From Squalus acanthias (Eukaryota): DNA of 64,000 nucleotides. A program made the position numbers and the translations under genes. Of this stretch, positions 712-52,852 are shown piece after piece. Numbering within the stretch: position 1 is the first letter of the stretch; every line of letters begins with the position of its first letter. The notes below the pieces were generated by a model. The model saw only the letters and a list, made by a program, of their open reading frames with translations, made no database searches and had not been told where the DNA came from. The DNA is taken from positions 189,038,001 to 189,102,000 of the forward strand of contig CM059427.1 of NCBI GenBank assembly GCA_030390025.1. The letters run 5' to 3'.

Positions 712-981
712 ATTGGTCCACAGAAAAATCTGCTTTTCCAGTGAGAATAATGGATCCAGCTTCCTGCACTTCACACGCGTACAACTCCTTATCCTCTACT
801 GCAACATGTTTGACTATCAGATAGACTGTGTTATTTAGTCGGATCTGATCAGTGTTGCTCCTGTTCTGCTGAGTTGACTCTCTCTTTTTCCATTGAAGAC
901 TGACTGTATCTGAGAGTTTGGAGATGGTACAGCTGAGTGTAACGTCACTGCCCACCAAAGGCTGCTGTGGACTTGACTCAA
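712..981 (-). CDS. IgSF C2-type domain exon of a CD4/LAG-3-like gene (proximal unit, second Ig domain)
   Basis: 270-nt phase 1-1 exon, ttttcacag|TTGAG ... CAAT|gtaagt; VESSPQQPLVGSDVTLSCTISKLSDTVSLQW...EDKELYACEV with B-strand Cys, C-strand Trp and F-strand YxC. Confidence 0.88.
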
Positions 982-1150
982 CTGTGAAAAACAGATCAAT
1001 AAGATTTTGTGTAAGTAGTGACATGTACAATCCAACAATTAGGTTCTAACTGACCATAGGATGTGCCCATCATCAGCACTTGTATCTTGCTTCATTAAAG
1101 AGTCAGGCCAGATTACACACAAGTGCATTTTAGCAGTAGAATAACACAGT

Positions 1151-1835
1151 GGGCCTGAAAATTCTAAGTCCTGCTCCACCAGCGTAAGTGAGGCAGAGCA
1201 GCACTGGTGACCTTTACCCCTGATCCTGTGGGGTCAGGTTAACGTTACAAGATTGGATGACATTTGGGGAAGCCGACACCACAATGGACAGGTGATGGAA
1301 TCTCACCAGAGGAGGGTGTGATGGAAATGTAGCGCCCATATTATCAGACATGGAGAAGGCTCCAGTCCCACTCTGTTCTCAATGTGCCTCGCACACTTCA
1401 GTAAGACCACCCAACACACGCACTGGGAGCCTGTGCACAAAATCCACGCCAAAAGTCATTACGTTATTGAAATGAGTGGGCTCCCAAAATGCTCCTGAGC
1501 AGGGCTCCAATCATTGAGCGTCCATGAGGAATGGCACTTCAGGAGAGGCTTGTTCTAAAAATGCCCCCCCTGACTTTCAGTCCCACTACAACATGACAAG
1601 TAAGAATCAAATCTTCAACAGGGACTTTAATTCCAATGTCAGGCCAAAATAATGGTGCCATCCATTAGCTGCTGGCGCCCAACACTCTGGTGCCCGACCC
1701 GTGTGACATTCCCCGTGTACCACGCACTATGTACCATGAGTGCCACTAACAAATGTAAATGAGTTGACTTTCTATTATGGTCATCTCATTCTGGTGCAGT
1801 TTGGGCCAACACCTCAGGAGCAATGGTCCAGGCCC
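1151..1835. mobile_element. Old Harbinger-like MITE
   Basis: gggcctg...caggccc termini; imperfect 3-bp flanks agt/aga. Confidence 0.45.
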
Positions 1836-2059
1836 AGATCATATTTTGTCCACTACGACATTTCAGGATTGGATTATAATTTGTATCAAGTACATTTGAC
1901 AGTAACCTCAGCCTCATTTAGATGTTACACACATCAACCAACCAGAAAGTGCAGCTGTTGAGCAGCATCCTTAGTTGGCAGAAACTAAAGATTTTGATTT
2001 ATTTATACTAAAGTTTTTTTAATGTTTTTGAGTAGATACAATGACCGGAATCTTAATTT

Positions 2060-2620
2060 TTTTTTAGTCGCTTATGGGATCTGGGCATGGCTGGCTAGGC
2101 CAGCATTTATTGCCCATCCCTAGTTGCCCTTGAGAAGGTGGTGGTGAGCTGCCTTCTTGAACCGCTACAGTCCATGTGGTGAAAGTACTCCCACAGTGCT
2201 GTTAGGGAGGGAGTTCAAGGAATTTGTCCGAGTAACGATGAAGGATCGGCGATATACTTCTAAATCAGGATTGTGTGTGACTTGGAGGGGATCTTGGAGG
2301 TGGTGGTGTTTCCATGTGCCTGCTGCCCTTGTCCTTCTAGGTGGAAGAGGTCACGGGTTTGGGAGGTGCTGCCGAAGAAGCCTTGGCGAGTTGCTGCAGT
2401 GTATCTTGTAGATGGTACACACTGCAGCCATGGTACGCTGGTGGTGCATCGAGTGAATGTTTAAGGTGGTGGATGGGGTGCCAATCAAGTGGGCTGCTTT
2501 GTCCTGGATGGTGTCGAGCTTCTTGAGTGTTGTTGGAGCTGCATTCATCCAGGCAAGTGGAGAGTATTTCATCACAGTCCTTACTTGTGCCTTGGAGATG
2601 TTGGAAAGGCTTTTGAGGCA
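2060..2620 (-). mobile_element. 3' fragment of a CR1/L2-group LINE
   Basis: RT C-terminal peptide VRTVMKYSPLAWMNAAPTTLKKLDTIQDKAA; 3' tail similar to 31660-31720 and 60190-60280. Confidence 0.7.
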
Positions 2621-2624
2621 GATA

Positions 2625-3384
2625 GGGAGTGGTGAGACCGAATTTAGCGACAGGGCCTGATCAACATTTAAAATCACTGTTTCCCGCCTGCAGCCAGCCT
2701 GAAGGAAAGGCTCGAATTTAAAGGCCAGGGACACCAGGCCACAGAGAGGAGGGAGTGAGGGAATGGTGGGGTTGTCGGAAGGCAGGCGTGGGGTATCGGA
2801 GGTCCGAGTTTGAGGTCGGAAGGCCGGAGGGGAGAGATCGGACAGCCAGAGTTCGGAAGTCGGAAGGCCAGAGGGAGTATTGGAGGAGGGCTGGAAAGCT
2901 GCAGGGGAGAATTCGGAAGGCCGAAGAGGGAATTGGAGATCAGAGAGAGGTCGGAAGGCCGGAGGGGAGGTCAGAAGGCTGGAGGGGTGATCAGAGATCG
3001 GAGGTCTCGTGGGGGGTTGTCGGAGGCCCTAGGGTAAGTTGGGGGGAGATAGGAAGGGTCGGGGTGGGGTGCCTGATAGCGGGCGGGTGGCGAGGCAGAA
3101 ACCCTGGATCCAGCAGTCCTCGTCACCCTTTAGCTGGCGGGTTCCCCGAGCCCACAGTTAAATTTAAAATGGTGGATCACTATGAGGCACCCAACCCCAT
3201 TAGAATATTTAAAGTGCAAACTCACCTCCTGGGAGCAGATTAGCTGCCCCCCCACCCTCGTCCCACCTCCGTTAAAACCAGAAGTGGGCGGGTTGGAGGC
3301 AAGTTGGGGCCAGGATTCAGATTTTTAACTCTAACATCTCACCCAACCTCAAGCGAACCATTTTTTGGGGTTAAAATTCCCCCA
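2625..3384. mobile_element. Harbinger-like MITE fragment
   Basis: GC-rich with short internal repeats; ends in TIR-like ggggttaaaattccccc; left boundary approximate. Confidence 0.4.
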
Positions 3385-3915
3385 GTGTATCTCTTTTCTC
3401 TGCCATGTTCTTCTTGCTTTCCTGAAGGTGTTAACTCCTTATCATAGTCCGAGTTCCAGGGACACTTGACATCCTCTGGGACTTCAACCAAGTGACACAT
3501 CTAACAGGTTCACTGGACAGCAATAAGGAGCAGTGATTCTGGCCAATCTTATTCCTGTCCCATCTTATTCCTGTCCCATCGCGCTGAGGCCTATTACTAC
3601 AAGGGATCTATTGGTTTGGTAACAGAATTCAGTACATCTGACAGAGAGTGTGCCACTGTACAGACCATAATACTCTCTGTGGGGTAGATTCCTCGGTATG
3701 ATATTTCTGGTGAAATTGTCGAAAAGTTTTTACTCATGTTGACCATTTCTGGAGAAACAATGAACAAAATCTTTCACCTGGTTGTTTTAATGAGAGATGC
3801 TCTCTGCACTGGGTGATATAAATCTCACATGATCCTGGCAATCTCTCATCATTACACATGAAATTATTTACGGAGAATCATTTTATTTTTCCTTTCTAGA
3901 CTTTATCCCACTCAC

Positions 3916-4257
3916 CTTTGATCCCAAATATTTCATATCGTTTCAGGATTTTATTACTCGGCTGTGTTTGAGTCAAGATGAACAATCCCGCAAGTTTAAA
4001 TGTGGGTTTTCCAATTCTCAGATTAATGGTACCACGATTCCATTTTATCTTCTCGGACAAGTCGCTATTTGTAAAGTCATTGTTCCATTGTGCACCCCAA
4101 CGATTCAAACTCCTTTTGTGAAAAGTAACCAGCCGCTGGATTTCTTGCCCTGAGTGTGGTTTCCATTCCCAGACAACAGGGCCATTCCCAGGATTGTCCG
4201 GTCCGTTTAATGGAATGTCATCTCCCTCATCCAAAAAATAAATATGATTTGGGTTTC
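3916..4257 (-). CDS. IgSF V-like domain exon lacking both canonical cysteines (proximal unit, first Ig domain)
   Basis: 342-nt phase 1-1 exon, ctaacag|GAAAC ... AAAG|gtgagt; open frame NPNHIYFLDEGDDIPLNGP..VVWEWKP..INLRIGKPTFKLAGLFILTQ..YEIFGIK; splices in frame to 712-981. Confidence 0.8.
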
Positions 4258-6378
4258 CTGTTAGAACGAGGAACAATGTAAGTATTTAAATATTTAAATT
4301 GCAACTCCTTAATCCCATAATTGTAATGATTAATATCGGAGTTCATCTATTTACTATCTATGGGAACCTGAGCATACATTCAGAAGGGAGAGAAGCAAAG
4401 CTGGAAACCGAAGGCAGAAAATTACTAAGCGAGTTTGGAAGGCAGTGGAAACAAAGGCTAGGAAAAAAGCAACAAAGGTTTTGGCAGTGCTTGCTGGTAA
4501 ATCCTTCAATGCAAGGAGTCCAGTGAATAAGGCAGATGAGCTGAGGCCACAGATAGACATAGATATCATAGATATTACTGAAACATGGCTTAAAGAAGGG
4601 CAGGAATGGTAACTCAACATTCTTGGTTATACAGTTTTCAGACAAATATTAACTGGGATAGAGTCAGTGTAAAAGGTATAGAGGGTGCAGAATTTTTAAA
4701 ATGCATTCAGAAGATCTTTTTTAGCCAGCACGTAGCTAGCCCAACAAGAGAGTTCTGGACTAAGTTTTAGGGAATGAAGCTGGGCAGGTGGAAGGGGATC
4801 AGTGGGGGAGAATTTTGTTGGTAGTGATCATAATTCAGTTAGATTTAACGTAGTTATGAAAAGGGACAAAGATAGACCAGGAGTAAAACTTCTCAATTGG
4901 AGAAAGGCCAATTTACTAAGCTGAGATGTGATTTAGCAAAAATGGAAACAGCTACTTGAAGGTAAATCAGTGTCAGAGTACTGGGAGGCATTCAAAGAGG
5001 AGATAGTCAGGATTCAGTGCAAATATGTTCCCACAAAGAAAAAGGGCGGGACTCCCAAATCTAAAGCTCCCTGGATGTCAAGGAGCATACAAGGTAGGAT
5101 AAGGAAAAAAAGGAAGCTTATGTCAGATACCAAGAGCTCAATACTGCAGAAAGCCCAGAGGAGGATAGAAAGTTCAGGGGTGAAATTAAAAAATAAATTA
5201 GGAAAGCAAAGAGAGGGCATGAAAAAGTATTGGCAAGTAAAATCAAGGAAAAACCCAAAGATGTTTTAGAGTAAGAGAATAACTAAGGAAAGAGTAGGGC
5301 CTAATAGAGACTAAAAATGGTAACCTATGTGTGGTGACGGAAGATGTGGGTATGGTTCTTAATAAACTTTGTGTCTGTCTTCACACAAGGGAGGGACGAT
5401 GCAGACATTGTAGTTAAGGAGGTGGAGTGTGAAATGTTAGATGGGATAAAATAGTGAGAGAGGAAATATTAAGGGGCTTAGCATCTTTGAAAATAGATAA
5501 ATCGCCACGCCCGGATGAAATGTATTCCAGGCTGTTAAGAGAAGAATGGGAGGAAATAGCGGAAGTTCTGACCATCATTTCCCGAACCTCTCTGGCTACA
5601 GTCATGGTGCTGGAGGACTGCTAACATTGTACCATTGTTTAAAAAGGGAGACAGGGATAGTCTGAGCAATTACAGACCAATCAGCCTAACCTCGGTGGGG
5701 GGAAATTATTAGAAAAAATGTATTTAGAAAGGCACAGATTAATCAAGGAGAGTCAGTGTGGATTTGTTGAGGGAAGGTCCTATCTGACTAATTTGATTAA
5801 ATGTTTTGAGGAGGTAACAAGGCGGATTAATGAGGGTAGCGTTTTGATGTAGTCAACATGGATTTAGCAAGACTTTTACAAGGTCGCACATGGCAGACTG
5901 GTCAGAAAAGTAAAATCCCATGGGATCCAAGGGAAAGTGGCAAGTTGGATCCAAATATGGCTCAGTGGCAGGAAACAAAGGGGAATGGGCGACAGTTGTT
6001 TTTCTGACTGGAAGGCTGTTTCCAGTGGGGTTCCACAGGGCTCAGTACCAGGTTTCTTGCTTTTTTGTGGTACATGTCAATATTTTGGACATCAGTGTCG
6101 GGGTCATGATTAAGAAATTTGCAGGTGATAAAAAATTGGCCGTGTAGTTGATAGTGAGGAAGAAAGCTGTAGACTGCAGGAAGATATCAATGGACTGGAC
6201 AGATGGGCAAAAAAGTGGCAAACGGAATTTAAACCGGAGAAGTGTGAGGTAATGCATTTGGGGAGGGCTAACAAGGCATGGGAATACACAATAAATGGTA
6301 GGACACTGAGAAGTGTAAAGGGACAGAGGGACCTTGGAGTGCATGTCTACAGATCCCTAAAGGTACCAGGACTGGTAG

Positions 6379-12051: not shown

Positions 12052-12139
12052 TTTGTGTGAAAACAGACGGAAGTCGAAACACAAAGAAACTGAACATCAA
12101 ACCAGCTGGCATTTTGCTGCAGAAAAATCGTAGCCTCAT
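12052..12139 (-). CDS. Signal-peptide (leader) exon of the proximal Ig gene; exon 12052-12161 including 5'UTR
   Basis: Acceptor tttcttacag| at 12161, ATG at 12139, MRLRFFCSKMPAGLMFSFFVFRLPSVFTQ, phase-1 donor A|gtaagt that joins in frame to 4257. Confidence 0.7.
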
Positions 12140-12257
12140 TTCACAGATTCCGTCTCTTTCCCTGTAAGAAATATCCATATAGATATAGATGTATATATAG
12201 CACCAGAAAACCACCAGAAGTAAAACCCAGGCACATTTCTTAAATATGTTTAACACT

Positions 12258-23600: not shown

Positions 23601-24203
23601 TCCACAACCAGGGGGCATAGATTTAAATTAATTGTTCAGAGGTTTAGAGGGGATTTGAGGGGAAATTTCTTCACCCAGAGGCTGGTAGGAGTCTGAAAAT
23701 CACTGCCTGAAAGAGTGGCAGATTCAGAGACCCTCACCACGTTTAAAACATGCTTGGATGTGCACTTGAAGTGCTGTAACCTACAGGGCTACAGACCAAG
23801 AGCTGGACAGTGGGATTAGGGTGGATAGCTCTTTTTTGGCCAGCGTGGACACGATGGGCTGAAATGGCCTCCTTCCGTGCTGTAAATTTCTATGATTCTA
23901 TGGTTACCTCAGCGGGTCCGAGGTGAGTGCTGTCGGTGGTGGGTCGCGGCCCTGCAGCTGGCTCCATCCTGTTGCCTAAACGGAACTTGCTTTGATAGGG
24001 CTTGTTAAGCCTGCCCAGCGCGTTCCCCAGCCCAATTAGAGGAAGTGGGTCTGCTGATGTCATTCATGACACGCCATCAGCCGGTTTCCTTAAAGGGACC
24101 ATGGCCAACTTTGTTTTGATGCGGTGATGCCGGTGTTGGACTGGGGTGGACAAAATTGAGAGGTCGCACAACACCAGGTTATAGTCCAACAGTTTTATTT
24201 GAA

Positions 24204-24247
24204 ATCACAAGCTTTCGGAGCTATCGATCGCCCCTTCCTCAGGTGAA
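24204..24247 (-). ncRNA. Minimal hammerhead ribozyme motif (mirror copy)
   Basis: Reverse complement of 30401-30444. Confidence 0.75.
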
Positions 24248-24579
24248 GTAGTAAAGAAATACAGACTCGACAAAGCATATATAGATAGAGAACAATGCAT
24301 GTGTACCTTACAATTGCAGACAACTAAATTAAATCATCCTGACTATCTGCCGAGGTGTGATAAAGTTAATCAGGTCAGCCAGGAAGGTACCACATCAAAG
24401 ACATAGCAAGATACAACTGAGACAATGAGGTGGAGTCGCAGGGGTCTAACGTGTCAAAAGCTGCCGTCTGTATGTAAAACGATAAGCTGTAAAAATGTTT
24501 TACTTTTTTACTGGGAAAATTTTTACTTTTTTACTGGGAATCACATCTGTGAACAAGCCAACGACGACTCGAGTCCGGA

Positions 24580-27258
24580 TCACGTCATGTATCGTGACAT
24601 AAACCCAAGATCCCGGTTGAGACCGTCTTCATGAGTGCGGAACTTGGCTATCAGTTTCTGCTCGATGATTTTGCGCTGTCGTGTGTTCCTAAGGTTGCCT
24701 TGGAGAACGCTTTCCCGCAGATCCGAGGCTGAATGTCCTTGACTGCTGAAGTGTTCCCCGACTGGGAGGTAACAATCCTGCCTGGTGATTGTTGCGCGGT
24801 GCTCGTTCATACGTTGTCTCAGTGTCTGCATGGTCTCGCCGATGTACCATGCCGCGGTGCATTCTTTCCTGCAACGTATGAGGTAGACAACGTTGGCCGA
24901 GTCACATGAGTATGTACCATGTACCTGGTGGGTAGTGTCCTCACGTGTGATGGTGGTATCTGTGTTGATGATCTGGCATGTCTTGCAGAGTTTGCCGTGG
25001 CAGGGTTGTGTGGTGTCGTGGTCGCTGTTATCCTGAAAGCTGGGTAATTTGCTGCGAACGATGGTACTTCTGAGGTTAGGCGGCTGTTTGAAGGCAAGTA
25101 GTGGAGGCGTGGGGATGGCCTTAGCGAGGTGTTTGTCGTCATCGATGACATGTTGAAGGCTGCGAAGAACATGGCGTAGTTTCTCCGCTCCGGGGAAGTA
25201 CTGGATGACGTAGGGTACCCTGTTGGTTGTGTCCCGTGTTTGCCTTCTGAGGAGGTCTATGCGATTTTTCGCTGTGGCCCGTCGGAACTGTCGATCGATG
25301 AGTCGAGCGTCATATCCCGTTCTTACGAGGGCGTTTTTCAGCGTCAGTAGGTGTCCATCGCGTTCCTCCTCGTCTGAGCAGATCCTGTGTATTCGCAGGG
25401 CTTGTCCATAGGGGATGGCTTCTGTAACGTGGTTAGGGTGGAAGCTGGAGAAGTGGAGCATCGTGAGGTTGTCCGTGGGCTTGCGGTAGAGTGAAGTGCT
25501 GAGGTGTCCGTCTTTGATGGAGATTCGTGTGTCCAGGAATGAAACCGATTCTGAGGAGTAGTCCATGGTGAGTTTGATGGTGGGATGGAACTTGTTTATG
25601 TTATTGTGTAGTCTTTTCAGTGATCCTTCACCATGGATCCAAAGGAAGAAAATGTTGTCGATGTATCTGGTGTACAGTGTTGGCTGGAGGTCCTGTGCAG
25701 CGAGGAAGTCTTGCTCGAACTTGTGCATGAAGATGTTGGCGTATTGGGGTGCGAATTTGGTCCCCATGGCTGTTCCGTGTGTTTGGGTAAAAAAATGGTT
25801 GTCGAAGGTGAAGACATTGTGGTCAAGGATGAAGCGGATGAGTTGTAGGATGGTGTCTGGAGATTGGCTGTTGTTGGTGTTGAGTACTGAGGCTGTCGCA
25901 GCGATGCCGTCATCGTGGGGGATACTTGTGTAGAGTGCCGATACGTCCATCGTGGCGAGGAGTGTTCCTGGTTCAACTGGTCCATGGGTGGTGAGTTTCT
26001 GTAAGAAGTCTGTAGTGTCGCGACAGAAGCTGGGGGTTCCCTGTACGATGGGTTTCAGAATGCCCTCGACCTATCCAGAGAGGTTCTCACACAGGGTTCC
26101 ATTGCCTGATACGATAGGACGTCCGGGTGTGTTGGCTTTGTGTATCTTTGGGAGGCAGTAGAAGTCTCCCACGCGGGGAGTATGTGGGATGAGAGCGCGT
26201 AGGATGTTTTGAAGGTCTGGATCGAAGGTCTTGATCAGTCTATTGAGTTGGCGGGTGTGTTCTTTGGTCGGATCTGCGGGTAGCTGTCTGTAGTGTTCCT
26301 GGTTGTCCAGTTGTCGGTATGCTTCTTTACAATAGTCCGTTCTGTTCTGTATGACGATGGCTCCTCCTTTGTCCGCTGGTTTGATGACGATGTTGCGGTT
26401 GGTCTTGAGAGCGTGGATGGCGTTGCGTTGTGCTCGGGTGACATTCTGGACTGTCTTGTGAGTGCGGCTGATGAATCTGGCGTTGATGCATCTCCTGACC
26501 GCTTGAGCATACATGTCAAGCTTGGGGCATCGACCCTCCGGAGGGGTCCAGTTTGACTCTTTTTTCTTCGGTTGCTGCACTGCGAGTCCCTCTGTCTGCT
26601 GTTCTGGATCATTGATTGTCTCATTGGGTTTGTTGCTGACATCTTGGGATTTGTGGAAGTATTCCCGGAGCCTCATTCTCCTGATGAATTCCTCCGTGTC
26701 TGCCGCAAGACCGATGGGGTCCATTTTGGTGGTTGGGCAGAACTTGAGCCCCAGGGCGAGAACTTCGATTTCGTCTGGTTGAAGGGTATGGTCGGACAAG
26801 TTGACGATGGACTTCCCTGTGGTTGCAGCCGTGGTACCGGGGGAGGCTTGGTTGCTGCTGGTGGTGATGCCGAGTTTCTCAAGCTTCCTGTTCTTGATGC
26901 GCATGTAGGCAGCGTAGTTCCGTTGCCTCGTCTGTTTGGCGGTGTCTCGTAACTGGTCTGCTGTGTCCTGAGCACAGGCTGAGAGCATGGACTCTATCTT
27001 GGTTTCGAGGTTGCGACGTCTGCTGTAGAGCTGGTGTACGAGATGGTTGAGGAGTGTGCGAGAGGTACGACGGCAAAGTCTCTCAGCGTAGTCTGTGTTG
27101 TATGTCGACTTGAGTGGGTTCGTGATCTGTAGTCCTTTCGGAATCTTGTCTGCTTTCTTGCATCTCTGTAGATACTTGATGTCGGTGTCGATATGCGCGA
27201 TCTTCTTGGCGATTCTCTCCACTTTGAGCCGGCAGTTTGTGGTGTCGATAGTGGTCAT
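24580..27258 (-). pseudogene. Penelope-like RT + GIY-YIG ORF with one premature stop
   Basis: Same length as the right-arm ORF (2679 nt); TAC>TAG at 26071-26073 splits it into the two listed ORFs. Confidence 0.92.
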
Positions 27259-27389
27259 GATGCGGAGATGCCGGTGTTGGACTGGGGTGGACAAAATTGA
27301 GAGGTCACACAACACCAGGTTATAGTCCAACAGTTTTATTTGAATTCTCAATTTTGTCCACCCCAGTCCAACACCGGTATCTCCGCATC

Positions 27390-30068
27390 ATGACCACTAT
27401 CGACACCACAAACTGCCGGCTCAAAGTGGAGAGAATCGCCAAGAAGATCGCGCATATCGACACCGACATCAAGTATCTACAGAGATGCAAGAAAGCAGAC
27501 AAGATTCCGAAAGGACTACAGATCACGAACCCACTCAAGTCGACATACAACACAGACTACGCTGAGAGACTCTGCCGTCGTACCTCTCGCACACTCCTCA
27601 ACCATCTCGTACACCAGCTCTACAGCAAACGCCACAACCTCGAAACCAAGATAGAGTCCATGCTCTCAGCCTGTGCTCAGGACACAGCAGACCAGTTACG
27701 AGACACCGCCAAACAGACGAGGCAACGGAACTACGCTGCCTACATGCGCATCAAGAACAGGAAGCTTGAGAAACTTGGCATCACCACCAGCAGCAACCAA
27801 GCCTCCCCCGGTACCACGGCTGCAACCACAGGGAAGTCCATCGTCAACTTGTCCGACCATACCCTTCAACCAGACGAAATCGAAGTTCTCGCCCTAGGGC
27901 TCAAGTTCTGCCCAACCACCAAAATGGACCCCATCGGTCTTGCGGCAGACACGGAGGAATTCATCAGGAGAATGAGGCTCCGGGAATACTTCCACAAATC
28001 CCAAGATGTCAGCAACAAACCCAATGAGACAATCAATGATCCAGAACAGCAGACAGAGGGACTCGCAGTGCAGCAACCGAAGAAAAAAGAGTCAAACTGG
28101 ACCCCTCCGGAGGGTCGATGCCCCAAGCTTGACATGTATGCTCAAGCGGTCAGGAGATGCATCAACGCCAGATTCATCAGCCGCACTCACAAGACAGTCC
28201 AGAATGTCACCCGAGCACAACGCAACGCCATCCACGCTCTCAAGACCAACCGCAACATCGTCATCAAACCAGCGGACAAAGGAGGAGCCATCGTCATACA
28301 GAACAGAACGGACTATTGTAAAGAAGCATACCGACAACTGGACAACCAGGAACACTACAGACAGCTACCCGCAGATCCGACCAAAGAACACACCCGCCAA
28401 CTCAATAGACTGATCAAGACCTTCGATCCAGACCTTCAAAACATCCTACGCGCTCTCATCCCACATACTCCCCGCGTGGGAGACTTCTACTGCCTCCCAA
28501 AGATACACAAAGCCAACACACCCGGACGTCCTATCGTATCAGGCAATGGAACCCTGTGTGAGAACCTCTCTGGATACGTCGAGGGCATTCTGAAATCCAT
28601 CGTACAGGGAACCCCCAGCTTCTGTCGCGACACTACAGACTTCTTACAGAAACTCACCACCCATGGACCAGTTGAACCAGGAACACTCCTCGCCACGATG
28701 GACGTATCGGCACTCTACACCAGTATCCCCCACGATGACGGCATCGCTGCGACAGCCTCAGTACTCAACATCAACAACAGCCAATCTCCAGACACCATCC
28801 TACAACTCATCCGCTTCATCCTTGACCACAATGTCTTCACCTTCGACAACCATTTTTTTACCCAAACACACGGAACAGCCATGGGGACCAAATTCGCACC
28901 CCAATACGCCAACATCTTCATGCACAAGTTCGAGCAAGACTTCCTCGCTGCACAGGACCTCCAGCCAACACTGTACACCAGATACATCGACAACATTTTC
29001 TTCCTTTGGACCCATGGCGAAGGATCACTGAAAAGACTACACGATAACATAAACAAGTTCCATCCCACCATCAAACTCACCATGGACTACTCCTCAGAAT
29101 TGGTTTCATTCCTGGACACACGAATCTCCATCAAAGACGGACACCTCAACACTTCACTCTACCGCAAGCCCACGGACAACCTCACGATGCTCCACTTCTC
29201 CAGATTCCACCCTAACCACGTTAAAGAAGCCATCCCCTATGGACAAGCCCTGCGCATACACAGGATCTGCTCACACGAGGAGGAACGCGATGGACACCTA
29301 CGGACGCTGAAAAACGCCCTCGTAAGAACGGGATATGACGCTCGACTCATCGATCGACAGTTCCGACGGGCCACAGCGAAAAATCGCATAGACCTCCTCA
29401 GAAGGCAAACACGGGACACAACCAACAGGGTAACCTACGTCGTCCAGTACTTCCCCGGAGCGGAGAAACTATGCCATGTTCTTCGCAGCCTTCAACATGT
29501 CATCGATGACGACAAACACCTCGCTAAGGCCATCCCCACGCCTCCACTACTTGCCTTCAAACAGCCGCCTAACCTCAGAAGTACCATCGTTCGCAGCAAA
29601 TTACCCAGCTTTCAGGATAACAGCGACCACGACACCACACTACCCTGCCACGGCAAACTCTGCAAGACATGCCAGATCATCAACACAGATACCACCATCA
29701 CACGTGAGGACACTACCCACCAGGTACATGGTACATACTCATGTGACTCGGCCAACGTTGTCTACCTCATACGTTGCAGGAAAGAATGCACCGCGGCATG
29801 GTACATCGGCGAGACCATGCAGACACTGAGACAACGTATGAACGAGCACCGTGCAACAATCACCAGGCAGGATTGTTACCTCCCAGTCGGGGAACACTTC
29901 AGCAGTCAAGGACATTCAGCCTCGGATCTGCGGGTAAGCGTTCTCCAAGGCAACCTTAGGAACACACGACAGCGCAAAATCGTCGAGCAGAAACTGATAG
30001 CCAAGTTCCGCACTCATGAAGACGGTCTCAACCGGGATCTTGGGTTTATGTCACGATACATGACGTGA
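27390..30068 (+). CDS. Penelope-like RT + GIY-YIG endonuclease, 892 aa, open but with YIDN in RT
   Basis: IKPADKGG, LPKIHK, MDVSALYTSIP, GTAMG, RYIDN, FLD, PCHGKLCKTC linker, NVVYLIRC..YIGET; ATG at 27390 follows the pLTR. Confidence 0.92.
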   Translation: MTTIDTTNCRLKVERIAKKIAHIDTDIKYLQRCKKADKIPKGLQITNPLKSTYNTDYAERLCRRTSRTLLNHLVHQLYSKRHNLETKIESMLSACAQDTADQLRDTAKQTRQRNYAAYMRIKNRKLEKLGITTSSNQASPGTTAATTGKSIVNLSDHTLQPDEIEVLALGLKFCPTTKMDPIGLAADTEEFIRRMRLREYFHKSQDVSNKPNETINDPEQQTEGLAVQQPKKKESNWTPPEGRCPKLDMYAQAVRRCINARFISRTHKTVQNVTRAQRNAIHALKTNRNIVIKPADKGGAIVIQNRTDYCKEAYRQLDNQEHYRQLPADPTKEHTRQLNRLIKTFDPDLQNILRALIPHTPRVGDFYCLPKIHKANTPGRPIVSGNGTLCENLSGYVEGILKSIVQGTPSFCRDTTDFLQKLTTHGPVEPGTLLATMDVSALYTSIPHDDGIAATASVLNINNSQSPDTILQLIRFILDHNVFTFDNHFFTQTHGTAMGTKFAPQYANIFMHKFEQDFLAAQDLQPTLYTRYIDNIFFLWTHGEGSLKRLHDNINKFHPTIKLTMDYSSELVSFLDTRISIKDGHLNTSLYRKPTDNLTMLHFSRFHPNHVKEAIPYGQALRIHRICSHEEERDGHLRTLKNALVRTGYDARLIDRQFRRATAKNRIDLLRRQTRDTTNRVTYVVQYFPGAEKLCHVLRSLQHVIDDDKHLAKAIPTPPLLAFKQPPNLRSTIVRSKLPSFQDNSDHDTTLPCHGKLCKTCQIINTDTTITREDTTHQVHGTYSCDSANVVYLIRCRKECTAAWYIGETMQTLRQRMNEHRATITRQDCYLPVGEHFSSQGHSASDLRVSVLQGNLRNTRQRKIVEQKLIAKFRTHEDGLNRDLGFMSRYMT

Positions 30069-30400
30069 TCCGAACTCGAGTCGTCGTTGGCTTGTTCACA
30101 GATGTGATTCCCAGTAAAAAAGTAAAAATTTTCCCAGTAAAAAAGTAAAACATTTTTACAGCTTATCGTTTTACATACAGACGGCAGCTTTTGACACGTT
30201 AGACCCCTGCGACTCCACCTCATTGTCTCAGTTGTATCTTGCTATGTCTTTGATGTGGTACCTTCCTGGCTGACCTGATTAACTTTATCACACCTCGGCA
30301 GATAGTCAGGATGATTTAATTTAGTTGTCTGCAATTGTAAGGTACACATGCATTGTTCTCTATTTATATATGCTTTGTCGAGTCTGTATTTCTTTACTAC

Positions 30401-30444
30401 TTCACCTGAGGAAGGGGCGATCGATAGCTCCGAAAGCTTGTGAT
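30401..30444 (+). ncRNA. Minimal type I hammerhead ribozyme motif in Penelope pLTR
   Basis: UCAC-CUGAGGA-A-GGGGC..GCUCC-GAAA-GC-UU-GUGA: core boxes, stem II, palindromic stem III, stem I UCAC/GUGA. Confidence 0.75.
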
Positions 30445-30819
30445 TTCAAATAAAACTGTTGGACTATAACCTGGTGTTGTGCGACCTCTCAATTTTGTCA
30501 ACTTTGTTTTGACATTGGTGGTGTCAGTGTTCCACAGTATCGAAGTGCTGCAAACACTGACAATCACTGCAAAGAGGTGCAGGGCTGCACACAGGTTCTC
30601 CCATGACTAGCTCCATATAAACACACAGGGACGTCCTCTTCCCTTCCCATAAGCGGAAGAGACCTCCCCAGGAGACCAACACAGCCTGGTTGCGCATTGC
30701 GGCGGAGGTCACACGCAGGGATGTCGTCAGCAGGACCAGGGTGCAGTGGCGCAAACCTTTCAATGATCTCATTAGATCACAAAACATTCGGTCAAAGCCA
30801 CACTCACTTTGCACAAAAG

Positions 30820-36470: not shown

Positions 36471-36589
36471 CGCTCAGCCAAGGCTGTCACTTAACAGTCC
36501 TTGTTTGAAATATTTTAGCCCAGCTATCAAAGTTTTACTTGGTACGTATTAATTATAACTCAGAATACAAAAATCAATAGTCATTAACT

Positions 36590-37428: not shown

Positions 37429-37856
37429 TCATGTCCAGAACTGGAGCTGTGCTGGATTCGAAGGGGTTTATCATGTACAGAACTGGAGCTGTGCTGGTTT
37501 CGAAGGGGTTGATCATGTCCAGAACTGGAGCTGTGCTGGATTCGAAGGGCTTTATCAGGTACAGAACTGGAGCTGTGCTGGTTTCGAAGGGGTTAATCAT
37601 GTACAGAACTGGAGCTGTGCTGGATTCGAAGGGGTTTATCATGTACAGAACTGGAGCTGTGCTGGATTCGAAGGGGTTTATCATGTACAGAACTGGAGCT
37701 GTGCTGGATTCGAAGGGGTTTATCATGTACAGAACTGGAGCTGTGCTGGATTCGAAGGGGTTTATCATGTACAGAACTGGAGCTGTGCTGGATTCGAAGG
37801 GGTTTATCATGTCCAGAACTGGAGCTGTGCTGGATTCGAAGGGGTTTATCATGTAC
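37429..37856. repeat. 42-bp minisatellite, about 10 near-identical units
   Basis: Unit tcatgtacagaactggagctgtgctggattcgaaggggttta, head-to-tail, no spacers. Confidence 0.95.
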
Positions 37857-38031
37857 ACAGATCCATTACCTTGGATGCATTTCCATAAATGGTTAAAAGA
37901 ATGGAGTCAAAATGAAAGGAAATATACTCTCCCTATTATTACAACATGGCTAAAGAGGATTAAAAACAGAAAATGCTGGAAAGCACTCAGCAGGACAGGC
38001 AGCATGTGTGGAGAGAGAAAGAGAGTTAATC

Positions 38032-38777: not shown

Positions 38778-40059
38778 GATGATCTTTCAACAGAACTGGC
38801 AGATGTTAGAGATTTAACAGTTTTTAATCATTTAGAGAGCCAGAGAAAAGAGGGGGAGGAAAGAACAAAGGGAAGGTCTGTGATAGGGTGGAAGGCAGGA
38901 GTGATTCAATGACAAAAGGAAACACTTTCCCATTCCATTCCAAACCAATCTCTTCATCACAATCTATCAGTACAATCAGCAAACAATTGATTATCAGGGC
39001 TTTTAAATGATTGTTAAGGATAAATTAGTAAAACATTCCCAAAGCTGCAATCATTCCCACTTTATTTTGCATATTTTCTGTACCACAACTTTTATTCATG
39101 CTGTTTCTTTTCTGTTAATCTTTTAGTTGCGCTCTGCTGCAAACAATTCCCTGGGTGGGAGCATGGAGACAACCTTCTCCGGAGATTCCGTGATCTCGTT
39201 GTGTGAACAGGTGCTGGGAGGTGCAGGGGAGACGCCCATATTTACTGAGCCGAGTTTCATTCCTTCTCATTTGGAGCAGCTCAGCTCCATTGAGCTCCTC
39301 TGCAGAGAGAGTCCAGCTGAGATCACTCACTGGGGACCCACAGTCACAAATCCACGTCCCAACACTTCAAGCTCCACACACGGCTGCAGCACTGGGTCAC
39401 CGTCAGTCCCTACAATTATAAAACTGTGTCCCCAGCCTGGAGCCTCACCGGCCACGAGTGGAGATCAGGAATTCAGCCCAACGTTTGCACGATGTTCCAC
39501 CCATTGCAATTTCATACCGTGACCTGGAAAGTTAGTACTTGTAAAGTAAAATAACAGATACTGAGACTGGGATCTGTAAGATCTTAATGATCTCTCAGAG
39601 TTCTTGGACAAGACACCAATAGGCAGGAGCCAGTATGCTTGAGCAATAGATCAAGATTTATTAAGCTTAAAGCGCAATCAATACTTAACAAAAGATGATA
39701 GTTTTAACGAGTAGATCACAGCCCTTGGTCTTGGGAACCTCTCGGACACAGATGACATCGTCTTAAATATATTCCTTTGTTCTTGCAGTAAGTTTGTGTA
39801 AAGTTGTTCTTTGAGTGTCAAGGATTTAATCCTTTTCTTATTAAAATTTAGTTTGGCCAGTGTCTATATATGGTCTTTAACAAAATCACCTTTTTTAATT
39901 GGTTCTAATGGTCAAAATACCATTGTCACTCAGACTAAGGTAACATCCCGCCTTGCAGTATTTTTCCATCAACCCTATCCTTCTGTCTTGTTATCTTGTT
40001 TATAGATTCTCCACTCCATTGGAATTTACCATATCTCGGAGTGCAGCTTGGAACAGAGT

Positions 40060-40975: not shown

Positions 40976-41574
40976 CTTAGCATCATAATATATTATTTAA
41001 CAATTTAACCTTCACTCGCAGACTGTGGCTGTTTGTTATCAAAAATAGTCAAAACTGCTTTTGACTGTCTTTGCAGCTGCATTTTGAACAAGTCTTAGCT
41101 TATTAGTTACCCAGGAGTAATTATAGGTAATATTATTTGGTCAATGACTACACTTGAATTTATACGTATATGATTCTCGTCTAATAAATATCTCTAAATA
41201 TCAGCCTTTCATGCAGAACTATTGAACTGTACACTTCGGAATATAAACTAATCTAGCTACATAAAAAATGACCACAAAATAAATCCAGAATAAAACCACA
41301 AATCTATTTCAAAAATTTCCCCAAGATGGATCGAACTAGTTTCCAGAGACAACAGTTCTCGATGGGCACAGGCACGATGGGCTGAATGGCATCCTTCTGT
41401 GCTGTATCAGTCATTCTATGATCTCAGATCAGTATCGGAGTTCAGGGTCTGTATTGCGACAGCTCCTTGTGAATCATCTGTTTCATTTCCTGTCGCATCG
41501 TGTGGATTCCCGCTGTTCGATATCTGACAAGGGGCAAGAAATGTGCTTTAAATAAAGAGCTTATTCTTCAATAA

Positions 41575-43735: not shown

Positions 43736-43988
43736 GTTTTGAATTAAAGTGTTGTCCTGACCAGAGTGGCAGAATACAGATTCACACCTGAGATTCCCCA
43801 GGTGGTGAGTTCCCAATCTCGGCTGTGCTGTCTGGGGAGACATTAACCATCAAGGTGTGAGACAGCCACAGATCTGTAACTGGTATCTAGTAAAAAAAAA
43901 CTATTTTGACAAGGTGCAATTTTGTTGAAACTATTAATGTTTAACAGTGTTACCATGCATGTTTTTGAAAGTTTTGTGTGTTGTTGTA

Positions 43989-44454: not shown

Positions 44455-44491
<37 letters not shown>

Positions 44492-44756
44492 CTGCTGCTC
44501 ATTTTGCATCCAGGTCCAATCACAGCAAAGGCCAGGCAGTCTCTGAAGACCTTCAATGCAGCAGCAATGATGACATCATCAGAGGCGACTTTCAGACTGA
44601 AACCACTAATTGGTTCATGGGTTCCCACATGCTGGAACTCAATTGCCCAATTAAGTGAAAATTGCATCAATCTCCCACATCCAATTGCAGTCGGGTGGAT
44701 AACACGAAATGCGGATGACACGACCCCAACCCGCCCCAGTATCAAAATCCAATCCC
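43989..44756. mobile_element. Harbinger MITE related to the 53545-58081 element
   Basis: TIR gggctggatttt/aaaatccaatccc; TSD GTA; both subterminal regions match the ends of 53545-58081 in reverse. Confidence 0.82.
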
Positions 44757-46685: not shown

Positions 46686-48868
46686 AATAGAAACATAGAA
46701 ACATAGAAGATAGGAGCAGGAGTAGGCCATTCGGCCCCTCGAGCCTGTTCCGCCATTTAATGAGATCATGGCAGATCATCCAAATTCAGTACCCTGTCCC
46801 TGCTTTCTCCCCATATCCCTTGATCCCTTTAGCCTTAAGAAATATATCTAACTCCTTCTTGAATATATTTAATGAATTGGTCTCAACTGCCTTGTGTTGT
46901 GGAGAATTCCACAGGTTCACCACTCTCTGGGTGAAGAAATTCCTCCTCATCTCAGTCCTAAATTGCTTACCCCTTATCCTTAGACTGTGACCTCTGGTTC
47001 TGGACTCCCCCACCATCGGGAATATCCTTCCTGCATCTAGTCTGTCTAGTCCTGTTAGAATTTTATAAGTTTCAATAAGATCCCCTCTCATTCTTCTAAA
47101 CTCCAGTGAATATAAGCCTAATCGACCCAATCTCTCCTCATACATCATTCCTGCCATCCCAGGTATCAGTCTGGTGAATCTTCGCTGCACTTTCTCCATG
47201 GCAAGAACATCCTTCCTCAGATAAGGTGACCAAAATTGCACACAATACTCAAGGTGTGGTCTCACCAAGGCCTTGTACAACTGCAGCAAGACATCCTTGC
47301 TCCTGTACTCGAATCCTCTCGCCATGAAGGCCAACATACCATTTGCCTTCTTAACCGCCTGCTGCACTTGCATGCTTACCTTCAGCGACTGGTGCACAAG
47401 GACATCCAGGTCTCGTTGCACTTCCCCTTTTCCCAATCTATTGCCGTTCAGATAATAATATTTTTTCCTGTTTTTGCCACTGAAGTGGATAACCTCGCAT
47501 TTATCTACATTATACTGCATTTGCCATGCATCTGCCCAATCACCCAACCTGTCCAAATCATACTGGAGTTTCTCTGCATCCTCCTCACAGCACACATGCC
47601 CACCCAGCTTTGTGTCATCTGCAAACTTGGAGATATTACATCTAGTTCCCTCGTCTAGATTATTTATATATATTGTGAATAGCTGGGGTCCTAGCACCGA
47701 TCCCTGCGGTACCCCACTAGTCACTGCCTGCCACTCGGAAAAAGACCCGTTATTCCAACTCTTTGCTTCCTGTCTGCCAAAAAGTTCTCTTTCCAAGACA
47801 GTACCTTACCCCCAATCCCGTGTGCTTTAACTTTGCACGCTGATCTCTTATGCGGGACCTTATCGAAAGCCTTCTGAAAGTCTAAATACACCACATCCAC
47901 TGGTTCTCCCTTATCTATTCTACCAGTTACATACTCAAAAAATTCCAGTAGATTAGTCAAGCATGATTTACCTTTTGTAAATCCATGTTGACTTTCTCCG
48001 ATCCTGTCACTGTTTTCCAAGTGCTCTGCTATTACATCTTTTATAATGGACTCTAGCATTATCCCCACTACCGATGTCAGACTTACCGGTCTATAATTCC
48101 CCTTTTTCTCTCTGCCACCTTTTTTAAATAGTGGGGTTACATTAGCTATCCTCCAATCCATGGGAACTGTTCCAGAGTCTATAGAATTTTGGAAGATGAC
48201 CAGCAATGCATCTACTATTTCTAGGGCCACTTCCTTAAGTACCTTAGGATGTAGATTATCAGGCCCTGGGGATTTATCGGCCTTCAATCCCGTCAATTTC
48301 CCTAACACCATTTCCCTACAAATTCTGATTTCATTCAATTCCTCCCTCTCATTATACCCTATGTTCCCCGACATCTCTGGGAGGTTATTTTTATCCTCCT
48401 TTGTGAAGACAGAACCAAAGTATGTATTTAATTGGTCCGCCATTTCTTTGTTCCCCATTATAAATTTCCCTGATTCTGACTGCAAGGGACCTACAATTGA
48501 CTTCACCAATCTTTTTCTCTTCACATATCAATAAAAGCTTTTACAGTCAGTTTTTATGTTCCCTGAAAGCTTACTCTCATAATCTATTTTCCCCCTCTTA
48601 ATTAATCCCTTTGTCCTTCTTTGCTGAATCCTAAACTGCTCCCAATCCTCAGGTTTGCTGCTTTTTCTGGCCATATTATATGTCCTCTCCTTGGATCTTA
48701 TGCTATCCCTAATTTCCCTTTTTACCCACGTTTGAGTCACCTTTTTTGTTTTATTTTTATGCCAAACAGGGATTAACAAATTCTGTAGTTCATCCGTACG
48801 ATCTTTAAATGTTTGCCATTGCCTATCCACCATCAACCCTTTAAGTAATGTTCCCCAATCCATCCTAG
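46686..48868 (-). mobile_element. CR1 ORF2, 5'-truncated, frameshifted
   Basis: ORFs 48528-48863, 47721-48524 and 46786-47796; (tttctatg) tail. Confidence 0.9.
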
Positions 48869-49052
48869 GATGGAAATCAATGGAAATGAAAATTAGGAGA
48901 GATGTATAATGGGTGTCTGATCCGATACCGCTCGTTTATCTCTATCACACAAAGTCAATGTGGAGGCTGTTAGCAATAGTGGAGGGAAATAGGACACAAA
49001 GGATGAGGGGTCATCTCTGACAAAAAGAACAGTCAGTGACAATAATTTTCTA

Positions 49053-49683
49053 AAATGAGAAGTCGCACAACACCAGGTTATAGTCCAACAGATTTATTTA
49101 AAATTACAAGCTTTCGGAGCTGTCGCCAGTCCCAGTCCCAGTCGGGGAACACTTCAGCAGTCAAGGGCATTCAGCCTCGGATCTGCGGGTTCGCGTTCTC
49201 CAAGGCGGCCTTCGTGATACACGACAACGCAAAATCATCGAGCAGAAACTGATAGCCAAGTTCCGCACTCATGAGGATGGCCTCAATCGCGATATCGGGT
49301 TCATGTCACGCTATAGAACGTGACTTGACATCTTTGCCGGTCTTTCCAGTTTTAAAAAAAAACACAAGAAACAAACACAAAAAATGGAGAGGATATGCAG
49401 CCAGCAGGTGTTCTGACGCATTGGACCCCCTGGGACACATCTCATTGTCTTGGCTGTGCTCTTAGTGTGTCTTTGATGTAGGGAAAGATTTAATCTATGC
49501 ATTTTCTCCGTGTTTTTATATTCTGTGAATTCTGATAGATTCTCTCACAGTAACTTTGCCTGACGAAGGGGCGACAGCTCCGAAAGCTTGTAATTTTAAA
49601 TAAATCTGTTGGACTATAACCTGGTGTTGTGCGACTTCTCATTTTTGTCCACCCCAGTCCAACGCCGGCATCTCCGCATCATG
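49053..49683 (+). mobile_element. Short Penelope insertion: inverted pLTR piece plus GIY-YIG C-terminus and pLTR
   Basis: 12-bp TSD aataattttcta (49041-52, 49684-95); PVGEHFSSQGHSASDLR..EQKLIAKFRTHEDGLNRD. Confidence 0.88.
49556..49593 (+). ncRNA. Minimal hammerhead ribozyme motif, second Penelope subfamily
   Basis: UUGC-CUGACGA-A-GGGGC..GCUCC-GAAA-GC-UU-GUAA; stem I covaries relative to 30401-30444. Confidence 0.72.
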
Positions 49684-49719
49684 AATAATTTTCTATTGAG
49701 CACAAACCCTGAGTCACTT

Positions 49720-49941
49720 AGCACTGGGCTCCAGATAGTACAGGGGTAAAACCTGGGGCTGTTTTGATAAAACAAAACACATATCCAGCTCCCTCTCTGT
49801 CAGCTTTCTGAATAATCAGTCTCAATGATTTCCCTTCCCAATTCCATCCATCGAACGATTTCTCTTCCACAATGTTGCTTTAGTTTCTGATCCAAACAAA
49901 TTTCATTGATTCAGTGACATCAGAGACAGAGCAGGTCAGGG
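49720..49941 (-). pseudogene. Decayed, 5'-truncated paralog of the 52166-52435 C2 exon
   Basis: Translates LTCSVSDVTESMKFVWIRN*SNIVEEK..SLRLIIQKADR, then frameshifted GSWICVLFYQN..YYLEPS; in-frame TAA; donor degraded to ctaagt. Confidence 0.85.
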
Positions 49942-50085
49942 CATTTCTCTCCTTCCCCAGAATTGTACCTCGAATGATGTATTCCATCTATATCTGCCTG
50001 ACAATGCGTCTGACCCAACACCGCACTGTATCTCTTCTTCCATTGCTTTGAGCTGTATACTTTGTCTTTTGATGTTAAACTGTTT

Positions 50086-50840
50086 GGCCCAAAATTTCGG
50101 CTGAGAACGGGTGAGTACTCAGTGCGTACTCACCCGTATTTATTCCCGAAGTGCCGGTTTCCTGCATGCACTGCGCATGCATGAGAAACCGGCACTTCCG
50201 GTATGGCGAAGGGGGCGGTTCCTAGGTGAACCGCGTGCGCACTAGAGGCTGCGCGCACGCAGCACACTTAGGTTTTTTTTTAGGTTTCAACGCGAGGGTA
50301 AGTATGGAAGATTCGACAAAAGTAAAAAGGAGGCGTAAGACCCCTTTTGAACAAGGTAAGTAGTTAATTAAGTATAATTTTTAATTTTTTTCAACAGGTT
50401 TATCTTTTTTAGAGACTTTAAAGAAAGGTAAGTCTATTTTTATAACTTTTAAAAAAAAAATTTCAAAAATTTTTATTTTTGTTTAAAGTGGTTAATTTAT
50501 TTAACTATAGTTATTTTATTAACGTGATTTTTAAAAAAAAATTATTTGAGGTTTAGCTGTTGTTTTGAGGCCTCTTTCAATTCACAGATTTGACAGGTCT
50601 CCTGTCAAATCTATGAATGAAAGATGATCTGCTGCCATTGGCTCTCCATGGCCCACGTGATCCCAGGGGTCGCATCGCACTAACTGCGCCCCTGGGACAC
50701 GCACACACTGCGCGCCGGCACTAGGGAGAGGCCCAGGACCCGAAGTTCCTGTGGGGGCAAACAAGGACGGCAGACGCGGTATGTGATATCGCGCGCGATC
50801 CTTACCCCCACGGCAAGCCTCCGAGTCAAATATGAACACC
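50086..50840. mobile_element. Harbinger-type MITE family M1
   Basis: Homologous to 38032-38777 with the same internal hairpins; right end approximate. Confidence 0.78.
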
Positions 50841-50924
50841 TATGATTAAACTCTGAGTAATGTGGAGTGCAATAGAATATGAAAAGTGAAAGGTTATCAG
50901 AACAAAAGAACAGCAATAATTGAG

Positions 50925-52118
50925 AGTAGTGCGTTTGATGTGGTCTATATGGATTTTAGCAAGGCTTTTAATAAGGTCCCGCATGGCAGACTGGTCACGA
51001 AAGTAAAAGCCTATGGGGTCCAAGGCAAAGTGGCAAGCTGGATCCAAAATTGGGTCAGAGGCAAGAAACTAAGGGTAATGGTCGAAGGGTGTTTTTGTGC
51101 CTGGCAGGCTGTTTCCAGTGGGGTTCCGCAGGGCTCAGTACTCGGTCCTTTGCCTTTTGTGGTATATATCAATGATTTGGACTTGAATGTAGGAAGTATG
51201 ATTAAGAAGTTTGCAGATGATACAAAAACTGTCCGTGTGGTTGATAATGAAGAAGAAAGCTGCAGACTGCAGGAAGATATCAATGGACTGGTTAGGTGGG
51301 CAGAACAGTGGCAAATGGAATTCAATCTGGAGAAGTGTGAGGTAATGCACTTGGGGAGGGCTAACAAGGCAAGGGAATACACATTAAATGGTAGGACACT
51401 GAGACATGCAGAAGATCAGAGGGATCTTGGCGTGCATGTCCACAGATCCCTGAAGTTAGCAGGACAGGTAGATAAGGTGATTAAGAAGGCATATGGAATA
51501 CTTGCCTTTATTAGACGGGGCATAGAATATAAGAGCAGGGAGGTTATGCTTGAACTGTATAAAACACTAGTTAGTCCGCAGCTAGAATACTGTGTGCAGT
51601 TCTGGTCACCACATTACAGGAAGGATGTGATTGCACCAGAGTGGGTGCATAGGATATTTATGAGGCTGTTGCCTGGGCTGGGGAATTTTAGCTATGAGGA
51701 AAGATTGGATAGTCTGGGGTTGTTTTCTTTGGAACAGAGGAGGCTGAGCGGAGACCCAATTGAGGTGTATAAAATTATGAGGGGCCTAGATAGAGTGAAT
51801 AGGAAGGATCTATTTCCCTTAGCAGAGGGGTCAATCACCAGGGGGCATAGATTTAAAGTAATTGGTCGGAGGTTTAGAGGGGTTTTGAGGAGAAATGTTT
51901 TCACCCAGAGAGTGGTGAGGGTCTGGAACTCACTGCCTGACAGAGCGGTGGTAGAGAGCCTCATCACGTTTAAAAAGTACTTGGAATGCCATAACCTACA
52001 AGGCTACGGACCAAGTGCTGGAAAGTGGTATTAGGGTAGATAGCTCTTTGTCGGCCGGCATGGACAAGATGGGCCGTATGGCCTCCTTCTGTGCTGTAAA
52101 TTTCTATGATTCTATGAT
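50925..52118 (+). mobile_element. CR1 ORF2 3' fragment
   Basis: DVVYMDFSKAF..GVPQGSVLGP..FADD..QGYGPSAGKW; ttctatga tail. Confidence 0.9.
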
Positions 52119-52165
52119 GATGAACTTTCTATGGAGGTTACAAAGAGAAAACCTGAGACACTTAC

Positions 52166-52435
52166 TGTTAACCTTCAGATAATATGGAATTAAAACGCTG
52201 GGTGTGTTTTGATGAAACAAAATACATGTCCTGTTCCTTCTGCCTCTATCAGCTTTCTGAATAATCAGCCGTAACAAATCCTCTTCCTGCTTCTGGTCCA
52301 TGAAAATTTTCTCTTCAACAGTTTTGCCATCACTATTGCTCCAAACAAGTCTCATTGATTCAGTGACATCAGAGACAGAGCAGGTCAGGGTAACGGTGTC
52401 TCCCTCAGTCACTGCATCAGATGGTTCAGCTGTGA
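52166..52435 (-). CDS. IgSF C2-type domain exon (distal unit), 78-nt intron from the V exon
   Basis: 270-nt phase 1-1 exon, tttccacag|TCACA ... AACA|gtaagt; VTAEPSDAVTEGDTVTLTCSVSDVTESMRLVW...LRLIIQKADRGRRNRTC. Confidence 0.88.
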
Positions 52436-52513
52436 CTGTGGAAACAAGAAAATCATTTAGATTTTAAATAATAACTTGATCACTGAAAACAACGACAACA
52501 TTCTGTCTCCTAC

Positions 52514-52852
52514 CTTTAACTGTGATTAGTTTAATGGTCGCATAATTCAATAACCCCAGAGAACAAGTGTAAACTCCTGCATCTTCAAACAGTACGGGGA
52601 CAATCCTCACACTGAAGTTCTTGCCATTGAAATTTCCCGCTGTGGGCACCAGTCGACTCCCAAAGTAGGTCCTGTTTACTTCGATAGGCTTAGATCTGAA
52701 AGTAGAAGCTATTTCTTTCTCTTGATTCTGAAAATGACGTGACCTCCAAGTCCATTTAGTTTTAATGATCTCAGATTCAGCTTCACAAATCAGGGAGAGT
52801 TCACTGTGATCTGTGCCTGACTGATAAAGTGTGTAACTCTTATTGTGTAAAT
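52514..52852 (-). CDS. IgSF V-type domain exon (distal unit)
   Basis: 339-nt phase 1-1 exon, tttcag|ATTTA ... AAAG|gtagga; ELSLICE..KWTWRS..FGSRL..NFSVRIVPVLFEDAGVYTC..ITVK, canonical V-set DxGxYxC. Confidence 0.88.

Follow-up and report, generated by a model that had tools for sequence, protein, structure and literature searches.

The window analyzed here is a 64,000-nucleotide stretch of the genome of Squalus acanthias (positions 189038001-189102000 of contig CM059427.1, called C3 below). Very probably, two neighboring genes of a 3.1-Mb tandem array of immunoglobulin (Ig) receptors shaped like CD4/LAG-3 are represented in it: one by a broken 3′ remnant, the next, which is intact, by its first three exons. 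The array is likely a paired system, in which members with immunoreceptor tyrosine-based inhibitory motifs (ITIMs) are predicted to be inhibitory and members with a lysine in the transmembrane (TM) segment are predicted to activate through an adaptor with an ITAM (immunoreceptor tyrosine-based activation motif). The two genes are separate, one wrecked and one intact, and the large array in which they lie is expressed and contains both ITIM and TM-lysine forms. The family appears to be an ancient, undescribed set of paired receptors on a CD4/LAG-3-like scaffold, and its predicted, likely function is to allow immune cells of the shark to balance activating and inhibitory inputs.

A wrecked gene and an intact gene

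We checked the exons of the window for open frame, AG/GT borders, and phase and named the domain types A (V without cysteines; 4257-3916), B (C2; 981-712), C (V with a disulfide; 52852-52514), and D (C2; 52435-52166). All four Ig exons are on the minus strand, open, flanked by AG and GT, and in phase 1. An earlier, sequence-only reading had reported these four V and C2 exons, a decayed C2 copy, and a leader exon lying between the two pairs, and all of them were confirmed. That reading also gave the C2 domains an F-strand WxC, which is found in neither intact copy (RTC and YAC); the decayed copy alone has WIC. Among the 23 paralogous exons of type D′ (primed types belong to the second domain set described below), 22 have WTC, and the window copy is the sole exception. 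With 56 to 68 related matches per exon inside the cluster, the window exons are beyond chance. Pfam assigned Ig families to three of the four; the cysteine-less V exon (4257-3916) alone matched no Pfam family, and its ESM Atlas matches were weak. Its V fold is supported by a structure model and by profile matches.

The pair at 52852-52166 is a doubly broken remnant of one gene. It has lost its leader, its first two domains, and its TM exon, while its last exon, with a stop codon, persists at 41523-41416, between the two pairs, where the earlier reading had missed it. On the 5′ side, the homology of the orphan region to three paralogous loci ends in every case at 53360. On the 3′ side, a deletion of 2.08 kb lies at 43746/43741; its two flanks match the next gene at 98.8% and 95.9% identity, and the missing part is where that gene has its TM exon. 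The last exon of the window therefore has no TM exon before it because the deletion took it. Elsewhere in the cluster these arrangements are nearly invariant: a B exon precedes the C exon in 54 of 56 cases, the window C′ being among the two exceptions, and a TM exon precedes the last exon in 21 of 22, the window copy being the exception. The terminal exon is accompanied by poly(A)-like hexamers at 39899 and 39830. The decayed C2 copy at about 49941-49703 is common to at least 11 other cluster units and is therefore older than the orphaning.

The gene next upstream of the orphan pair is complete, divergent, and of the ITIM type, and it ends about 5.6 kb to the right of the window. We rejected the orphan pair as a part of that gene, since the gene has TM, ITIM, and stop exons of its own. 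It is very unlikely, too, that the pair is used by splicing from the upstream gene or from a cryptic start to give a secreted decoy without a TM segment. Both orphan exons have an open frame and undamaged splice sites, and splicing D′ to the terminal exon would yield a 13-residue tail and a stop, nearly matching the end of the basking shark model P0008. However, the TM, ITIM, and stop exons of the upstream gene come ahead of the orphan, the conserved Trp is lost, and at 52339, 52540, and 52822 all of the listed depth, in every covering run, carries the letters of the paralogues rather than those of the window (the runs are from other individuals, which may lack the window copy). At the loose read ends, C′ joins a B′ exon and D′ joins an inhibitory TM exon. 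P0008 itself has eight domains, and its end is almost identical to the 13 residues expected from skipping of the TM exon; it is a possible secreted isoform of the receptor family.

The downstream gene is intact. Its leader, A, and B exons are in the window, and its C and D exons lie about 17 kb to the left of it, followed by a GYLLVK TM exon and a short tail. Together they form an open reading frame of 511 amino acids with four domains (cysteine-less V, C2, V, and C2 with WxC) and a lysine-bearing TM segment. The distal C2 thus lacks a TM exon in the window because the gene continues outside it, and the absence of such an exon, as noted by the earlier reading, holds for the window and not for the gene. 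The leader exon (12161-12052) has an ATG at 12139 or 12112, and an Arg replaces the usual Leu late in its hydrophobic stretch. The splice from leader to A, one of the junctions proposed for checking, was present in all four runs (three of them guessed to be RNA, with the copy not assignable); run X16 has 23 raw reads with 12 starts. At 4257, the leader is the sole partner among the listed joints, and the loose end of the reads at 712 continues into a C exon. None of the run holders matching the V exon is recorded as RNA.

A 3.1-Mb array with two receptor forms

Exon-by-exon searches of the genome returned 66, 60, 74, and 62 matches; the leader search gave at least 40 (from 50 candidates), the two TM searches 23 and 16, and the last-exon search 22. 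For the map, we removed matches on contigs C26, C1512, and C9, merged split matches, and included two further leader copies that had been observed locally. The resulting array spans 186.43-189.52 Mb, with about 40 units on both strands and 56 A, 57 B, 56 C, and 68 D exons mapped. The unit order is leader-A-B-C-D, often followed by A′-B′-C′-D′, and then one of two TM modules, so that genes have four or eight Ig domains. Homologues in databases have the identical domain order in one to about four units, with more domains in some models. First-type A exons follow a leader in 27 cases and the end of another gene in 6, and none of the 33 follows a D exon; the six without a listed leader probably have leaders among the matches not listed. 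In eight-domain genes, D-to-V splices (17 cases) lead solely to second-type V exons. We also rejected the three downstream units as a single 16-domain gene; each has its own leader, TM exon, and last exon.

This organization bears out one model of the sequence-only reading, a tandem cluster with birth-and-death turnover, in an array far larger than the window implies. Its other model, a single V(SS)-C2-V(no SS)-C2 gene spliced over 48 kb from the 52166 donor to the 4257 acceptor, with 12052-12161 as an internal alternative start, can be set aside with near certainty: donor and acceptor are both phase 1 and in frame, and D-to-V splices exist in eight-domain genes, yet those splices reach second-type V exons only, the unit register is cysteine-less V-C2-V-C2, a terminal exon with a stop and poly(A)-like signals and the leader of the separate downstream gene intervene, no leader belongs to the 52852-52166 pair, and the 52166-to-4257 junction is not among the listed joints, 4257 joining the leader in RNA and the loose end at 52166 reading into an inhibitory TM exon.

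The two TM modules define two receptor forms, the key trait of the family and one that was out of sight for the sequence-only reading. One TM exon type carries a lysine in 14 of 17 close copies. The second has 15 matches on C3, and ITIM-type exons come next in all six genes traced to their end, with the motifs IHYGSI, VIYAQI, or near variants (the first motif is degenerate in one of the six). Tails are comparable in all three divergent genes that were read; in one of these, the first motif is a variant. In total, the array has 14 TM-lysine exons and at least 18 TM exons of the inhibitory type. Among 108 homologues, the TM lysine motif is present in 16 and an ITIM-like tail in 51. The GYLxVK TM segment is found also in bowfin and sturgeon relatives, which suggests that the pairing of activating and inhibitory forms predates the split of sharks and bony fish. 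An ITAM pattern was found in none of 38 tails scanned, and the genome has two genes of the zeta/FcR-gamma family. Related ectodomains, ITIM versus charged-TM forms, and location in one cluster, the features by which paired receptors are recognized, are all found here.

The first domain is the most variable. For sets of 30 A, 24 B, and 23 D′ exons (two A sequences with poorly aligned ends were retained), the nonsynonymous divergence (dN) was 0.10 for A, rising to 0.19 at residues 45-80, versus 0.04 for B and 0.02 for D′. Exons have been swapped between neighboring genes: the A exon of the window is identical to that of one neighbor at 342 of 342 positions, whereas its B exon is identical to that of another at 270 of 270 and to that of the first at 260 of 270. 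This mosaic region lies in a 14.5-kb block at 98.9%.

Several observations weigh against this reading of the window and the array. The lysine is absent from 3 of the 17 close copies and from all 6 divergent copies of its TM type, and 41 of the 108 homologues have neither tail or are incomplete. The similarity of the paralogues, 95 to 100%, prevents assignment of the reads to the window copy, and of the four runs, three are classed as RNA by guess. Some near-identical units of the array could be assembly duplicates. Finally, the ratio of dN to synonymous divergence (dS) in domain A is 0.95 (bootstrap, 0.68 to 1.27), with dS climbing along with dN in the patch, so positive selection is unsupported and block exchange explains the variation as well as selection does.

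The signaling roles are predicted from the biology of paired receptors as established for KIR, LILR, SIRP, NITR, and DICP. By analogy with these, we infer paired signaling in leukocytes and ligand binding by domain 1. ITIM tails would recruit SHP-1/2 and inhibit, the TM lysine would pair with DAP12 or FcR-gamma and activate through the ITAM adaptor, and domain 1, through its variable patch, may bind a variable ligand, either a self marker or a pathogen mimic. Unequal crossover and gene conversion could then reshuffle domain 1 onto either tail. The family may even be the shark counterpart of KIR and LILR, a paired system sensing the major histocompatibility complex (MHC) that arose from the CD4/LAG-3 scaffold and in which ITIM and TM-lysine forms had already separated by the time cartilaginous fish and bony fish diverged. 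In that case, it would represent an overlooked third branch in the lineage of CD4/LAG-3 and would be a candidate for the self-recognition receptors still missing for shark natural killer or myeloid cells; we regard this extension as possible but doubtful.

Relation to known receptor families

The sequence-only reading took the receptors to be lineage specific, which does not hold. Shark homologues are 68 to 74% identical, relatives were found also in rays, and family members among 30 library matches looked up came from sharks, chimaera, bichir, sturgeon, bowfin, eels, tarpon, a mormyrid, cyprinids, characins, pike, and salmonids. These are annotated as uncharacterized or hypothetical, save for one stray automatic label. 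No tetrapod was among the 30, which does not show absence.

The nearest named families are CD4 and LAG-3. The best named sequence matches were coelacanth LAG-3 (E = 3e-15) and CD4 (E = 6e-15), and the family profile is colinear with a CD4/LAG-3 profile across four domains (probability, 99.9; E = 1.8e-36). When the AlphaFold model of a homologue (predicted local distance difference test score, 71) was searched with Foldseek, LAG-3 and CD4 held ranks 1 to 7; the TM-scores were low (0.24 to 0.29), so the ranking reflects overall shape less than domain order. A sequence search of the PDB gave weak matches only, with PD-L1 first and LAG-3 next. In a quick, unrooted tree of 78 sequences, the two family modules form groups of their own, with Shimodaira-Hasegawa-like approximate likelihood ratio test (SH-aLRT) values of 98 and 99. 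The C-D module stands only tentatively beside CD4/LAG-3 D1-D2 (SH-aLRT, 84). Two library matches, P0097 and P0100, represent an unnamed type of repeated V-C2(WxC) receptor with tyrosine-rich tails that is weakly related to the family.

It is unlikely that, instead of being a family of its own, the array is a branch of the DICP or G6F-like receptors in cartilaginous fish. The DICPs of ray-finned fish are likewise clustered V-C2 receptors with module doubling; bioRxiv 2021.06.11.448072 describes V-C2 or V-C2-V-C2 ectodomains and inhibitory, activating, and secreted forms, the last represented in our family by P0008 only. However, DICP domains retain C23/C104, usually with extra DICP-specific cysteines in D1 and D2, whereas domain 1 of the array family has no cysteines, and activating bowfin DICPs use arginine where the family uses lysine. 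The family profile matched a set of sequences that we judged DICP-like by their cysteines (none of the sources calls them DICP) at E = 2e-17, much more weakly than it matched CD4/LAG-3 and no better than the CD4/LAG-3 profile itself does; the C-D module scored 90 against that set versus 157 to 161 against CD4/LAG-3 modules, and the family groups separately in the tree. Moreover, ray-finned fish possess their own members of the array family. G6F-like, a collagen receptor of fish thrombocytes, also has four Ig domains and is near by structure and by ESM features, its clusters ranking second and third among the look-alikes, with CD4 clusters also present. According to PMC3528668, its tail carries its own ITAM, a motif seen in none of the 38 family tails; family signaling is instead split into ITIM and TM-lysine genes. 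Since our profile sets were for CD4/LAG-3 and DICP-like, with none for G6F-like, SLAM, or B7, G6F-like is set apart by description and not by direct sequence comparison.

It is highly improbable that the array encodes genuine paralogues of CD4 or LAG-3 with the role of T-cell co-receptors for MHC class II. The V-C2-V-C2 ectodomain, colinear domain for domain, the WxC in domain 4, and the profile, Foldseek, and C-D module results above all argue for such an origin. Against it, domain 1 has no cysteines, and domain 2 has Y/FxC in 24 of 24 cases, versus the WxC that CD4 and LAG-3 have in both D2 and D4. The family tails read lack the Cx(C/H) of CD4 and the (F/Y)xxL(D/E) of LAG-3 and have instead ITIMs or a motif-less short tail after the TM lysine. 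Furthermore, there are about 40 copies with four or eight domains, both modules form their own tree groups, and shark CD4 and LAG-3 are already described as single neighboring genes in PMC10768021. The assignment to the CD4/LAG-3 family made by the sequence-only reading thus stands for ectodomain architecture and fails for membership, given the tails, the D2 motif, and the copy number.

On the flanks of the array, a P4HA exon is located at 186.24 Mb; an ARAP gene, with a SAM domain closest to that of ARAP3, occupies 189.55-189.66 Mb (148 of 788 candidate frames were scanned). P4HA/ARAP pairs are presumably located at human 5q31 or 11q13, away from the CD4 locus. TPI and MLF genes, which neighbor human CD4, sit on contigs other than that of the array. 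A strict first-look search of this genome with coelacanth CD4 gave no match and is uninformative as to the place of CD4.

With KIR, LILR, SIRP, and NITR, the family shares a tandem array, ITIM versus charged-TM forms, a variable distal domain, conversion, and pseudogenes; these families have another ectodomain scaffold, and none of our comparisons gave evidence of homology. The family would work like a KIR, LILR, or DICP cluster and is shaped like CD4 and LAG-3, yet it does not qualify as a member of either CD4/LAG-3 or DICP. In the openly searchable literature, which leaves subscription papers (e.g., Ohashi 2010 on G6F-like) and the supplements of bioRxiv 2021.06.11.448072 outside its scope, we found no description of this family or of a polymorphic activating/inhibitory Ig cluster like it in cartilaginous fish. 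With its roughly 40 genes, two signaling forms, variable distal domain, and relatives spread over the jawed fish, the array is a concrete candidate for how sharks innately weigh self and non-self. The V-C2-V-C2 scaffold of CD4 and LAG-3 has apparently also been used for paired receptors, which suggests a bearing on the origin of T-cell co-receptors.

Feature coordinates and further observations

Table 1. Features located in the window, numbered from its first nucleotide
Feature	Position	Strand	Remark
V exon with both Cys, orphan, third-domain type C′	52514..52852	-	86-95% amino acid identity to 23 paralogous exons
C2 exon, orphan, fourth-domain type D′, with RTC for the usual WTC in strand F	52166..52435	-	R in only 1 of 23 copies
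Domain 1, cysteine-less V, hypervariable among paralogues at about residues 45-80	3916..4257	-	
Domain 2, C2 with YxC	712..981	-	Its splice partner, domain 3, is about 17.4 kb beyond the left end of the window
Leader exon of the intact downstream gene	12052..12161	-	
Decayed C2 copy (stop and frameshift)	49703..49941 (about)	-	
Terminal cytoplasmic exon with stop, activating type	41416..41523	-	
Approximate 5′ breakpoint of the orphan pair	53355..53365	.	Homology to paralogous introns stops at 53360 in three paralogous loci
2.08-kb deletion junction, TM-lysine exon lost	43741..43746	.	
3′ flank of another gene, complete and of ITIM type	59879..64000	-	Exons of that gene 5.6-31 kb right of the window

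About 12 leader exons at 186.9-189.2 Mb of C3 have no V exon close behind them; these orphan 5′ ends mirror the remnant in the window. A divergent four-domain ITIM member stands alone at 173.78-173.81 Mb of C3 (L052-L055), 12.6 Mb from the cluster, with about 60 to 80% identity per exon to a sevengill shark protein, and further family copies lie on contigs C26 and C1512. On the left flank of the array (L187:996-7236; C3, 186.39 Mb), there are pieces of an element bearing reverse transcriptase and RNase H, split over several frames.

The remaining sequence of the window is chiefly repeat of the long interspersed nuclear element and Penelope types. Two Penelope-like copies of 3.17 kb lie head to head at 24146-30502, 99% complementary and with 17 nucleotides between them, and one has an open frame of 935 amino acids; the pair is either very recent or an assembly fold-back. 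A 42-bp tandem repeat at 37429-37857 has 10 copies with 95% matches.

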